The position numbers and the translations under genes were made by a program. From contig CAUJDS010000076.1 in the NCBI GenBank assembly GCA_963169695.1, positions 14,452 to 46,451 on the forward strand: DNA of 32,000 bases, written 5' to 3'. This DNA is from Bdellovibrionota bacterium. GTDB lineage: Bacteria; Bdellovibrionota; UBA1018; CAUJDS01. The notes below the pieces were generated by a model, which saw only the letters and a program-made list of their open reading frames with translations, was not told the DNA's origin and ran no database searches. Positions 13,300 to 16,120 of this stretch are shown here, one piece after another. Positions within the stretch are counted from its first letter, which is position 1. Each line of letters opens with the position of its first letter.

Positions 13300-15608
13300 A
13301 GATAAGAAATCTAGTTTCGCTTCTTGTGGCGTCCATGCTAATTTCTTCCACTTCATTCGCAACACCAGAAGCATCGCTTGAAGCACTCAATCTCAAGACC
13401 AATGACGAGGTTTTGAAAATCATAAAACCTCTCATGGATAAGTACTGCAAGGACAGCTGCCAGGTACTCAGCGCAAAGCCTGAAATTAAACTTCAAGACA
13501 CCGAAGAAACCGCACCCGGATTTGATGAAATCGCGCCACAGGAAGCCCTCAATTACAAGCCAGCCCTGGTGACTGTAGATGTTCTGGTAGATGAAATTGT
13601 AGGTCAAGTCACCCTTTCGCATCTTTTTGGTATCATACAAGAACACCTGAGCATACTTCCGTACCCTGTTATCTTGAATGAAAGGCGCAAGAAATTCCCG
13701 CAACCCTTGACGTCTGTTCAAAAAATGGCGGAACTGCGCAATAAAGTGGCCACGGACTTTCGGCAGAAAATTGAAGAGCTTTTTCGTGAATTCTGTCCGA
13801 AACAATGTATTCTGGCAGACCTAGATGTTTCATTGCAACAGCGCAATTTAGAAGAAGCCCAATACAACGCTAGCGGAGAATACATTACGGACGGAGATAC
13901 CTCTGCCAAGATCAATAAAATTTCCGGCCAAATTCTCTTCGATACGACCCTTACTCCGGATGAACAAACCGCCATCTTCGAAATGGCTCAACTCAAAACT
14001 AATTCCTACAAAAGCGTCAATCTTCAAGCAAAGAGCCGCTCTTTTCCCCATCCCGAACCCTATTCGGAAGATGGTTCGAATTTGGCATATGGTCGCATGG
14101 GCGGCAAGTACAGAGGATTGAGTTCGCAAGAGAGCAAGACTCAGAAGTCTGACTCAAAGAATTCTCAGCAGACGGATCGCAGGCTTTCTTCTTCGAGCAA
14201 TAACTCTCAGACGAATCAATCCAACAGTAAGACATCACAAGAATCCCAATTCAATAAAACTCAAAACGAAAGTGCCGAGAAATCCGAAAGTTATCAACGT
14301 ACTGAGCGAATTGAGCGAGTTGAAAGTGGCGACGCGGTTCAGGCCGAATTGAAGCGGCTTTCTGTATGGGGAGTCATCTTTGCGTGTTCAGTGCTTTCTC
14401 TTCTCATCTTTATAGCATTGGCCACCTATGCACCACGATCCAAGAAATCGAGCGAAAATTCACTTCTGCAGTGGATCCAAAAGTCGCCTAAAGGATCAAA
14501 AGAGCAGCTACCAGCCAAGACTGGGCCTAAGTCATCCAATGATTCCATTGCGCGTCGCTACGAAATTGACAACCTCATAGATGAATTGACTAGGATCTTT
14601 GCAGAACATCCCAAGGTTGCCAAGCACGCCTTCACTAGAGTTCTCACGGAAGAAGGAGTCGAAATCACAGCCGCCTATATATCAATCTTGGGCGAAAGCA
14701 TCGTACTTGATCTCCTCAAGGATCCCAGCCTGCAGAATGACGTCAATGAACTCACCGAATACTACGCTAAGAACACGCTGGAATTGAAAGACGAAGATAA
14801 ACTCGAGCTGCTCAAGAAGCTTCACAATCGTGCAATTGCATCTAAGCTTCAAGTGATTGGCAATCGCTCTTCTAACGCATTTGATTTCTTAGTGGAGATG
14901 GACGGCCTTCAAATTCTTGAAATGATTCAGAATGAATCCCTTACAGTAAAGGCAATCGTACTAACTCAATGTGATACGCAAAAGCGAGCTATTATCTACT
15001 CACACTGGGACGACGACGCTCGCGCCAAGATTCTAAAAGAATTATCTCGAATTGATCACCTTCCTCGAAATTATATTTATAACGTTTCTAATGCTCTACG
15101 TCGAAAGCGGCAAGACAATCCTCGCCTCAATACCGAGGCCCTTCCTGGTTCCGAAGTACTGGTGGGCCTATTAGAAAAGTCTTCCTTTGGGCAGCAACAA
15201 CAAGTCGTGATGGACCTAGAACAGAACAATCCTGAGAGTGCACGCGTACTCAAGAGCAAACTTGTTAGCATCGACACGCTACGCTACCTCCGCGACTCCC
15301 AGTTGCTCGAAGTCGTGCTCAGTCTCAAACACGAGGAGCTGCTTGCATTCCTCAAGGGCGCACCAGACCATATTCGCAAAACCATATTTGACAAGTCACC
15401 CAAAGATTTGGCCGAGGAAATTCAGGATGAGTTGACCATGGTCAGTCCGCTCAACCGCGACACCTACCAGGTAGTGGAACGTAAGATTCTCAATCGGGTA
15501 CGCCTCATGGCAAACGACGGACTCATCAATCTCATTGAAACCAACGAACGCATGTTTGCCGAAAGTCCCGCCAACCATGCCGGAGCTAGGAGGGCCGCAG
15601 GATGGTAG
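13296..15608 (+). CDS. bitopic membrane protein: periplasmic duplicated C-x3-C module, low-complexity linker, one TM, cytoplasmic FliG-like (N/M/C) region
   Basis: Signal peptide MKIRNLVSLLVASMLISSTSFA|TPEA. TM LSVWGVIFACSVLSLLIFIALATYA (nt ~14358-14432). C-terminal LLAFLKGAPDHIRKTIFDKSPKDLAEEIQDELTMVSPLNRDTYQVVERKILNRVRLMANDGLINL is colinear with recalled E. coli FliG LALALKGASDSLREKFLKNMSQRAADILRDDLANRGPVRLSQVENEQKAILLIVRRLAETGEMVI. The FliG-middle-like segment is ILEMIQNESLTVKAIVLTQCDTQKRAIIYSHWDDDARAKILKELSRI. Confidence 0.7.
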   Translation: MKIRNLVSLLVASMLISSTSFATPEASLEALNLKTNDEVLKIIKPLMDKYCKDSCQVLSAKPEIKLQDTEETAPGFDEIAPQEALNYKPALVTVDVLVDEIVGQVTLSHLFGIIQEHLSILPYPVILNERRKKFPQPLTSVQKMAELRNKVATDFRQKIEELFREFCPKQCILADLDVSLQQRNLEEAQYNASGEYITDGDTSAKINKISGQILFDTTLTPDEQTAIFEMAQLKTNSYKSVNLQAKSRSFPHPEPYSEDGSNLAYGRMGGKYRGLSSQESKTQKSDSKNSQQTDRRLSSSSNNSQTNQSNSKTSQESQFNKTQNESAEKSESYQRTERIERVESGDAVQAELKRLSVWGVIFACSVLSLLIFIALATYAPRSKKSSENSLLQWIQKSPKGSKEQLPAKTGPKSSNDSIARRYEIDNLIDELTRIFAEHPKVAKHAFTRVLTEEGVEITAAYISILGESIVLDLLKDPSLQNDVNELTEYYAKNTLELKDEDKLELLKKLHNRAIASKLQVIGNRSSNAFDFLVEMDGLQILEMIQNESLTVKAIVLTQCDTQKRAIIYSHWDDDARAKILKELSRIDHLPRNYIYNVSNALRRKRQDNPRLNTEALPGSEVLVGLLEKSSFGQQQQVVMDLEQNNPESARVLKSKLVSIDTLRYLRDSQLLEVVLSLKHEELLAFLKGAPDHIRKTIFDKSPKDLAEEIQDELTMVSPLNRDTYQVVERKILNRVRLMANDGLINLIETNERMFAESPANHAGARRAAGW

Positions 15609-16120
15609 GCACTTCAGAAGGAAAACCAACCTTAGAGATCCTGAAAAATATTCAGCTCTTTAAGGTTTTTACTGATTCGGAACTTCAACAGCTCCTTGCC
15701 ATGGGACAATCTGAATCGCACCAATCGTATTCTAATATTGTGATCGAGGGAGAGCTATCCTGGAGCCTCTATCTCATTCTCCAAGGCACCGTCGGCATCT
15801 TCAAGACTAATCCGCTTAGCGAGAACTCTTATGATATTGGCCAACTCAAAGAGGGAAGCTTCTTTGGCGAAATGTCTCTGGTCGATGAGAATGGCCGCTC
15901 AGCGACTGTAAGAGCACTAACCGATTGCGTTGTGTTTGTCATATCCAAGGAAGCATTTTCTACTTTTCTCAATAGCTCCACTGAACGACGTACTCGATTT
16001 TACGAAAAATGCATCAAGACTCTGGTCGATCGACTCCGAGAACTGAACGATGGATATGTGATCAGTCAGTATCAACTCTGGAAATCGGCGCTAAAAAAAG
16101 ATTCCGAGGAGGCCGCCTAA
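15602..16120 (+). CDS. stand-alone cyclic nucleotide-binding (CAP effector domain) protein
   Basis: 172 aa. Canonical CNB fold motifs: LFKVFTDSELQQL..., IVIEGE....LYLILQGTVGIF, phosphate-binding cassette FFGEMSLVDENGRSATVRALTDC. AGGAGG SD. The ATG overlaps the upstream stop region by 7 nt, and its stop TAA abuts the motA ATG. Confidence 0.88.
   Translation: MVGTSEGKPTLEILKNIQLFKVFTDSELQQLLAMGQSESHQSYSNIVIEGELSWSLYLILQGTVGIFKTNPLSENSYDIGQLKEGSFFGEMSLVDENGRSATVRALTDCVVFVISKEAFSTFLNSSTERRTRFYEKCIKTLVDRLRELNDGYVISQYQLWKSALKKDSEEAA

Follow-up and report, generated by a model that had tools for sequence, protein, structure and literature searches.

Why should a small protein built around a cyclic-nucleotide-binding (CNB) domain be encoded between a FliG-like gene and the stator gene motA? 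The question is raised by a stretch of 32,000 nucleotides from a Bdellovibrionota bacterium of class UBA1018 (assembly GCA_963169695.1, contig CAUJDS010000076.1, positions 14,452 to 46,451 of the forward strand), hereafter the window, in which the open reading frame (ORF) at 15602..16120 encodes a 172-residue CNB protein. This protein consists of a stand-alone CNB domain that lacks an output domain and whose phosphate-binding cassette is intact and invariant, and its gene is the fourth in a conserved operon of six to seven genes. Our preferred reading, to which we give an even chance, is that the CNB protein works as a receptor in its own right, with a 3',5'-cyclic nucleotide, most probably cyclic AMP (cAMP), as its ligand, and that it acts post-translationally on the products of its own operon to switch a stator. 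All features of the operon described below lie on the forward strand, and coordinates are those of the window unless another locus is named.

An invariant cassette in a protein without an output domain

The sole Pfam domain of the CNB protein is cNMP_binding (PF00027, E=7.7e-18, residues 46–125), and the same domain stands alone in 27 of 27 aligned orthologues scanned against Pfam. A search of a large protein collection returned 321 homologues at E<=1e-3, the best 120 of which show 57–88% identity, are nearly all 157–185 residues long and come from metagenome-assembled genomes labelled Bdellovibrionota, Bacteriovoracia, Oligoflexia or Bdellovibrionales; we therefore regard the gene as real. 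Two alignments, of 27 and 131 sequences, were used, with AlphaFold2 run on the 131-row alignment. The phosphate-binding cassette FFGEMSLVDENGRSATVRA (15860..15916, residues 87–105) has a mean column identity of 0.91, and among the 131 sequences F88, G89, E90, R99 and A101 are invariant while S100 is 99% conserved, so that the ligand site is expected to be in use.

The AlphaFold2 model (mean predicted local distance difference test score, pLDDT, 86.7) consists of a beta-roll followed by one unbroken helix of 45 residues (127–171). Foldseek matched this model to the cyclic-nucleotide-binding domains of PKG, PKA, HCN/SthK and CRP with TM-scores of up to 0.76 (0.7–0.76 for the PKG and CRP domains), and a profile search of PDB sequences placed PKG/PKA domains at the top, with CRP lower. 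A helix-turn-helix DNA-binding domain was detected neither by Pfam in the 27 members nor in the model, and a CRP-type transcription factor was rejected as a candidate on the grounds that every member scanned carries PF00027 only and that nothing but a single helix follows the beta-roll in the model. No PilZ match was obtained in Pfam or NCBIfam. The original prediction, made from the letters of the window, had described a stand-alone CNB protein with an intact cassette and no output domain, a description with which Pfam, the 131-sequence alignment and the model all agree.

The most conserved part of the protein outside the cassette lies in the distal C-terminal helix. Nearly all residues of the stretch 144–164 (16031..16093; consensus RLRELDDNYVISQYQLWKTAL, RLRELxDxYVISQYQLWKxAL), which is helical in the model, are conserved, with a mean column identity of 0.91 that equals the value of the cassette, compared with 0.75 for the beta-roll. 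Such conservation exceeds what a coiled-coil seam would need and looks like that of an output surface, and its parity with the cassette indicates a putative second functional surface. The 45-residue helix predicted in the monomer model also has a regular hydrophobic pattern and may serve in dimerisation, as the long C-helix does in CRP/FNR proteins.

At the very end of the protein, the last two codons (16112–16117) encode Ala-Ala or Val-Ala in 105 of the 131 sequences, and the MotA protein of the operon ends similarly, in Arg-Arg-Ala-Ala. We take the conserved C-terminal dipeptide of the CNB family to recall degrons of the ClpXP type.

Codon-level coupling to both neighbours throughout an order

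Both junctions of the CNB gene are tight in the window. Its ATG lies inside the final codons of the upstream gene for a 770-residue protein, in an overlap of 7 nucleotides (ATGGTAG), with an AGGAGG box about 11 nucleotides 5' of the ATG, and its TAA at 16118–16120 is directly followed by the motA ATG at 16121. These coordinates confirm the overlap with the FliG-like stop and the contact with the motA ATG that had been pointed out before.

Whole-genome searches covered 201 Bdellovibrionota genomes, a true orthologue being defined as a match at E<1e-40, and among these genomes true CNB orthologues are confined to the taxonomic order of the window's genome, which is an uncultured one. The gene order FliG-like, CNB, MotA, MotB was found in 17 of 17 loci from the whole-genome searches and in 19 further loci from a scan of GTDB species genomes, making 36 orthologous loci (17 + 19), all with at least 42% identity, a few of which are the same contig in both sets. 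Longer flanks show a conserved unit of a divergent lipoprotein-like gene followed by gene 1 of the operon and the genes for the TPR, FliG-like, CNB, MotA and MotB proteins, often with a gene for a zinc-ribbon/transmembrane/SH3-like protein downstream and frequently with flagellin genes upstream. FliG-like or motAB neighbours were absent around all 61 of the 61 remaining CNB relatives, which have at most 37% identity and belong to Silvanigrellales, Kofleriaceae and other groups. Homologues lying away from motAB had been named beforehand as evidence that would count against a role at the stator; every orthologue with at least 42% identity is placed between a FliG-like gene and motAB.

The junctions themselves are equally consistent. 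The gap from the FliG-like stop to the CNB start is -7, -4, -1 or 0 nucleotides in 28 of 29 loci, and that from the CNB stop to the motA start ranges from -4 to +9 nucleotides in 29 of 29. The proteins have drifted apart to 42–65% identity, and yet the CNB gene has stayed coupled at codon level to either neighbour; the co-production proposed in the original prediction is supported by these tight junctions on the FliG-like and motA sides alike. Among the bearers of an orthologue are FG-1 and FG-2, magnetotactic uncultured Bdellovibrionota of class UBA1018 whose cells have a single thick polar flagellum and for whose group the names Bdellonasia and 'Bdellonasus magneticus' have been proposed (PMC13200544, 2026).

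A FliF/FliG chimera and a second stator set beside the CNB gene

The finding of the CNB gene also highlights its unusual upstream neighbour, gene 3 of the operon (13296..15608), whose 770-residue product starts with a signal peptide that is conserved in orthologues. In the AlphaFold2 model, the periplasmic part contains two alpha-beta-beta-alpha-beta modules (24–132 and 140–248), which Foldseek matched to the FliF MS-ring (7bk0_B and 6scn_A). A disordered linker rich in Ser, Asn and Gln, one transmembrane helix (~344–378) and a run of basic residues follow, leading to a helical cytoplasmic part of ~350 residues with a full-length FliG-like domain (411–755), for which Pfam reported FliG_M and FliG_C and Foldseek full-length FliG (3hjl and 8umx_B, 316–317 aligned columns). 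As modelled, the protein is a chimera of FliF ring-building motifs (RBMs), a transmembrane helix and full-length FliG. The earlier label of a FliG-like gene is therefore right as regards FliG_M and FliG_C, which are part of a full-length FliG, and incomplete in that it leaves out the signal peptide, the transmembrane helix and the two FliF-like RBM modules. Compared with the canonical FliG of the same genome, the chimera keeps the acidic pair of the torque helix (D-E for E-D). Where that FliG has the arginine that corresponds to E. coli R281, the chimera has another residue, preceded immediately by a lysine (E. coli numbering: PMC12505986).

Distant versions of this module, without a CNB gene, occur in other Bdellovibrionota, including complete genomes of 3–4 Mb (L153:5600-6757 and L154:4821-9647). 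In these versions, a membrane-anchored FliG-like protein of 557–580 residues is encoded near MotAB, together with a TPR protein and a homologue of gene 1.

Downstream of the CNB gene, gene 5 (16121..16903) encodes a PomA/MotP-like MotA of 260 residues with the channel domain MotA_ExbB (PF01618) and, in the cytoplasmic loop, the conserved residue pair R87-K88, and gene 6 (16912..17739) a MotD/MotS-like MotB of 275 residues with a plug (MotB_plug, PF13677) and an OmpA-like peptidoglycan-binding domain (PF00691). The best NCBIfam matches, all below the equivalog cut-offs, are MotP, PomA and MotA for the former and MotD and MotS for the latter. The genome (2.79 Mb, 95.6% complete) additionally carries a pair of E. 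coli-type MotA, with MotA_N, and MotB on another contig, and elsewhere a canonical FliG adjoining a 560-residue ORF that is taken, from its position and size, to be FliF. Judged by sequence, the MotAB of the operon is a second, PomA/MotP/MotD-like stator set beside the E. coli-type one and, with a second MotAB and a canonical FliG/FliF present, there is something for a regulator to choose between. Two stand-alone FliG_C proteins are also encoded in the genome, at L022:1402-1848 (149 residues, Pfam E=3e-28) and L024:1390-1827 (146 residues, Pfam E=2.7e-8).

Loss of the CNB gene in one genus and an apparent second joining to motAB

In six genomes of one genus, here g4, the operon lacks the CNB gene, and the FliG-like gene ends 2–7 nucleotides from the motA ATG. 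In a tree of the FliG-like proteins, g4 is sister to a CNB-bearing genome with a support of 100/100 and, when this tree is rooted with distant homologues, g4 and its sister are nested within the CNB-bearing group; in the CNB tree, the CNB protein of the sister genome falls within the single orthologue clade. One gain of the CNB gene followed by one loss would be the simplest history. The gene has been lost cleanly and is therefore dispensable, an accessory rather than a core part, and the module appears to work without the CNB protein in g4, as would be predicted for a regulator. A link between the loss of the CNB gene and a loss of cyclases was considered and rejected, as the CNB-less genomes retain class III cyclases.

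A second association was found in another Bdellovibrionota family, f22, where three genomes of three genera have a 154-residue CNB protein followed by MotA (of the MotA_N type, a subtype other than that of the window's operon) and MotB (L054:8009-9975, also L155 and L161), with a 16-nucleotide and an overlapping junction and without a FliG-like gene. The f22 CNB proteins have the cassette and the R-L-R of the C-terminal helix in common with that of the window, differ from it in the tail and branch elsewhere in the CNB tree, well apart from its clade. The union of a stand-alone CNB protein with motAB thus seems to have arisen on two occasions, a sign that the functional partner may be the stator itself. 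Sister to the window's CNB clade is a group from Silvanigrellales, which was rejected as a further link to motility because its neighbours are housekeeping genes (HisIE, Fpg and a kinase).

As to the ligand, the genome encodes four other CNB proteins and two HAMP-linked class III cyclases. In class III cyclases, Lys and Thr at the specificity residues are the adenylate-cyclase pattern. Both enzymes have Lys before the xIGD motif and Thr where other cyclases have Asp or Cys, and cAMP is therefore the likeliest ligand available. Class III cyclases were present in 10 of 10 related genomes tested.

The remainder of the operon and its surroundings

The operon begins with gene 1 (11412..12599), for a 395-residue secreted protein with a hydrophobic N-terminal signal, which has no match in Pfam or NCBIfam and belongs to no known family, and gene 2 (12565..13299), for a TPR protein with a lipoprotein-like N-terminus and matches to TPR_2 and TPR_14; both genes are kept in all fetched loci. 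At its other end, the variable gene 7 (17765..18571) encodes the zinc-ribbon/transmembrane/SH3-like protein, with weak Zn_ribbon_4 and SH3_3 matches and one transmembrane helix. It is present in many loci and missing from several, with and without a CNB gene.

Ahead of the operon, a sigma-28-like promoter, TCAA-N15-GCCGAAAA, can be read from the sequence at 11350..11376. A box resembling it (CCGAAAA with TAAA or TCAA upstream) was found in just 3 of 19 other loci, so that the weak conservation of the promoter lends weak support to a place of the operon in the flagellar regulon. Back to back with this box (the two spanning 11299-11376), a sigma-28-like box on the minus strand, TCAA-N16-GCCGATAA, faces the gene at 10478-11299.

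The window also carries fliD and two flagellin genes. Between flagellar genes, at 5214-8174, lies the gene for a 986-residue protein with a match to peptidase S46 over its first 120 residues. Adjoining fliD, a gene for a calcineurin-like phosphoesterase (Metallophos, 2628-3419) was considered as a cAMP phosphodiesterase of the CpdA type and rejected, its nearest NCBIfam model being LpxH, below the cut-off.

A proposed stator switch and its alternatives

Under our preferred reading of a cyclic-nucleotide receptor acting within its operon, the CNB protein would be made in fixed proportion with the other operon products, and binding of the ligand to the beta-roll would shift the long C-terminal helix, which is probably dimeric. 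This movement would expose or hide the block 144–164, whose docking site would be the cytoplasmic side of MotA/MotB or the interface of this side with the membrane-anchored FliF/FliG-like protein. The second, PomA/MotD-like stator set would thereby be toggled between an engaged and a disengaged or inactive state, and the system would be a cyclic-mononucleotide counterpart of the brakes and clutches formed by PilZ proteins with cyclic di-GMP. Because the MotAB of the operon is a second stator set, stator choice is as likely a target of the CNB protein as braking. More tentatively, and with rather more doubt than confidence, we envisage a cAMP-gated clutch or selector that sits on the base of a MotA5B2-type stator or on the FliG part of the chimera, and that times the drive by the second stator of a sheathed polar flagellum or of a separate device made of FliF/FliG and MotAB. 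Beyond the presence of an intact CNB domain, made together with its neighbours, each step is one that we infer.

Several points weigh against this proposal. Ligand, partner and direction of the effect are among the things that we infer, and the operon may belong to a separate machine and not to the flagellar motor. The CNB protein has L148 and D/N149 where CRP has T127 and S128; the base-contacting positions of the helix thus differ from those of CRP, and the nucleotide specificity is therefore less certain to be for cAMP. In addition, the FliG-like, MotA, MotB, TPR and gene-1 proteins were compared between 14 CNB-bearing and 6 CNB-less loci in search of a docking site, and of the columns conserved in CNB-bearing genomes, 115 in MotA and 57 in MotB, none were changed in the CNB-less genus. 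The FliG-like protein showed four discriminating columns, one of them cytoplasmic; hence no vacated docking site is visible.

The same comparison is what might be expected if the CNB protein were a cyclic-nucleotide receptor with its target outside the operon, be it a signalling protein, a transcription factor partner or the buffering of nucleotides, and were co-transcribed with late flagellar genes for timing only. The surfaces of MotA, MotB and the FliG-like protein are unaltered after the loss in g4, no partner could be identified, and the genes around the Silvanigrellales sister clade are housekeeping ones. We nevertheless consider an outside target unlikely, given that the two-sided codon-level coupling is retained through the entire order, that no orthologue was found elsewhere and that a second, unrelated CNB clade has also been joined to motAB. 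Stoichiometric co-translation and the strongly conserved helix surface would suit a ligand-independent structural or assembly subunit, one whose CNB fold scaffolds or chaperones the stator or the FliF/FliG-like ring; however, the invariant Gly-Glu and Arg-Ser-Ala would hardly be expected to persist without a ligand and the g4 module works without the CNB protein, which makes such a subunit improbable.

A role as proposed but with another ligand (cGMP, cCMP/cUMP, a 2',3'-cyclic nucleotide or a cyclic dinucleotide) is suggested by the PKG and PKA domains that head the sequence matches, by the departures from CRP at the base-reading helix positions and by PADLOC matches to the CNB domains of Pycsar effectors, according to which the fold can bind pyrimidine cyclic nucleotides. 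Since the class III cyclases found in the genome are all of the Lys/Thr, adenylate-cyclase type and no Pycsar-type cyclase lies nearby, we hold out little prospect for it. PADLOC also matched MotB to ZorB models, which together with the Pycsar matches could be read as a sign that the operon is an anti-phage system derived from MotAB, Zorya-like or Pycsar-like, and has no part in motility. These matches are to generic domains, and the Pycsar match covers the CNB part alone; MotA has no ZorA match, and ZorC/D, an effector domain and a neighbouring cyclase are lacking. The locus also shares its neighbourhood with fliD and flagellin genes, is preceded by a sigma-28-like promoter and encodes a FliF/FliG-like protein. 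We rejected the defence reading as scarcely credible.

Significance and comparison with known systems

Direct control of the motor by a second messenger is so far known for cyclic di-GMP acting via PilZ proteins. Searches of the full-text literature turned up no account of MotA, MotB or FliG as the target of a CNB protein, in keeping with the original prediction, which was aware of no description of such a mode. If the more tentative reading of a clutch or selector is true, the CNB protein would be the first cyclic-mononucleotide receptor to act directly on a flagellar-type motor, and a candidate for the effector that is still lacking in the fast cAMP-dependent swimming responses of other bacteria. 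A rapid effect of cAMP on swimming has been described in Leptospira kobayashii (bioRxiv 10.1101/2021.07.06.451194) and in Vibrio cholerae, where it was attributed to the sodium-motive force (PMC13079933), with no motor cAMP receptor identified in either. With its conserved, codon-coupled gene in a stator operon, the CNB protein is a specific candidate for a receptor of this kind, one that could be purified, and the loss in g4 and the pairing of CNB and motAB in f22 are natural comparisons that accompany it.

Among the closest parallels are PilZ proteins. YcgR of E. coli and Salmonella, FlgZ of Pseudomonas, which acts on MotC, and MotI/DgrA of B. subtilis are PilZ receptors of cyclic di-GMP that brake or declutch the flagellar motor. 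Like the CNB protein, they are of the type of a small, soluble second-messenger receptor without enzymatic output, thought to act on MotA and/or FliG; YcgR has been described as such a motor brake (PMC10140304). FlgZ governs the choice between two stator sets, and the window's genome has two as well. The CNB protein differs from the PilZ brakes in its beta-roll, in having a cyclic mononucleotide as its likely ligand and in being encoded by a gene that is translationally embedded in a stator operon. A structural precedent for a stator clutch is given by FapA of Borrelia burgdorferi (bioRxiv 10.64898/2026.10.14.759253), whose fold is unrelated, with ferredoxin-like domains and a beta-solenoid, and for which no nucleotide sensing is known.

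In its architecture, the CNB protein resembles CRP/CAP and the CRP-FNR proteins, with which it has in common the CNB beta-roll, a cassette containing Gly-Glu and Arg-Ser, and a long C-helix that bears an R-L motif; Foldseek aligned M. tuberculosis CRP to the CNB model with a TM-score of 0.75–0.76. Unlike CRP, it stops ~45 residues past the beta-roll, and the motif of its distal helix is specific to the family. The best profile matches in the PDB are the PKA-R/PKG domains and Mfla_1926 (PDB 3gyd), the latter also a single-domain protein of similar length, and these, unlike the CNB protein of the window, have no link to motAB or fliG. Finally, in the channels MloK1, SthK and HCN/CNG, of which SthK is among the matches of the CNB protein, a CNB domain governs an ion-conducting membrane complex; there the domain is fused to the channel polypeptide, whereas here it is a separate protein encoded beside an ion-driven stator.

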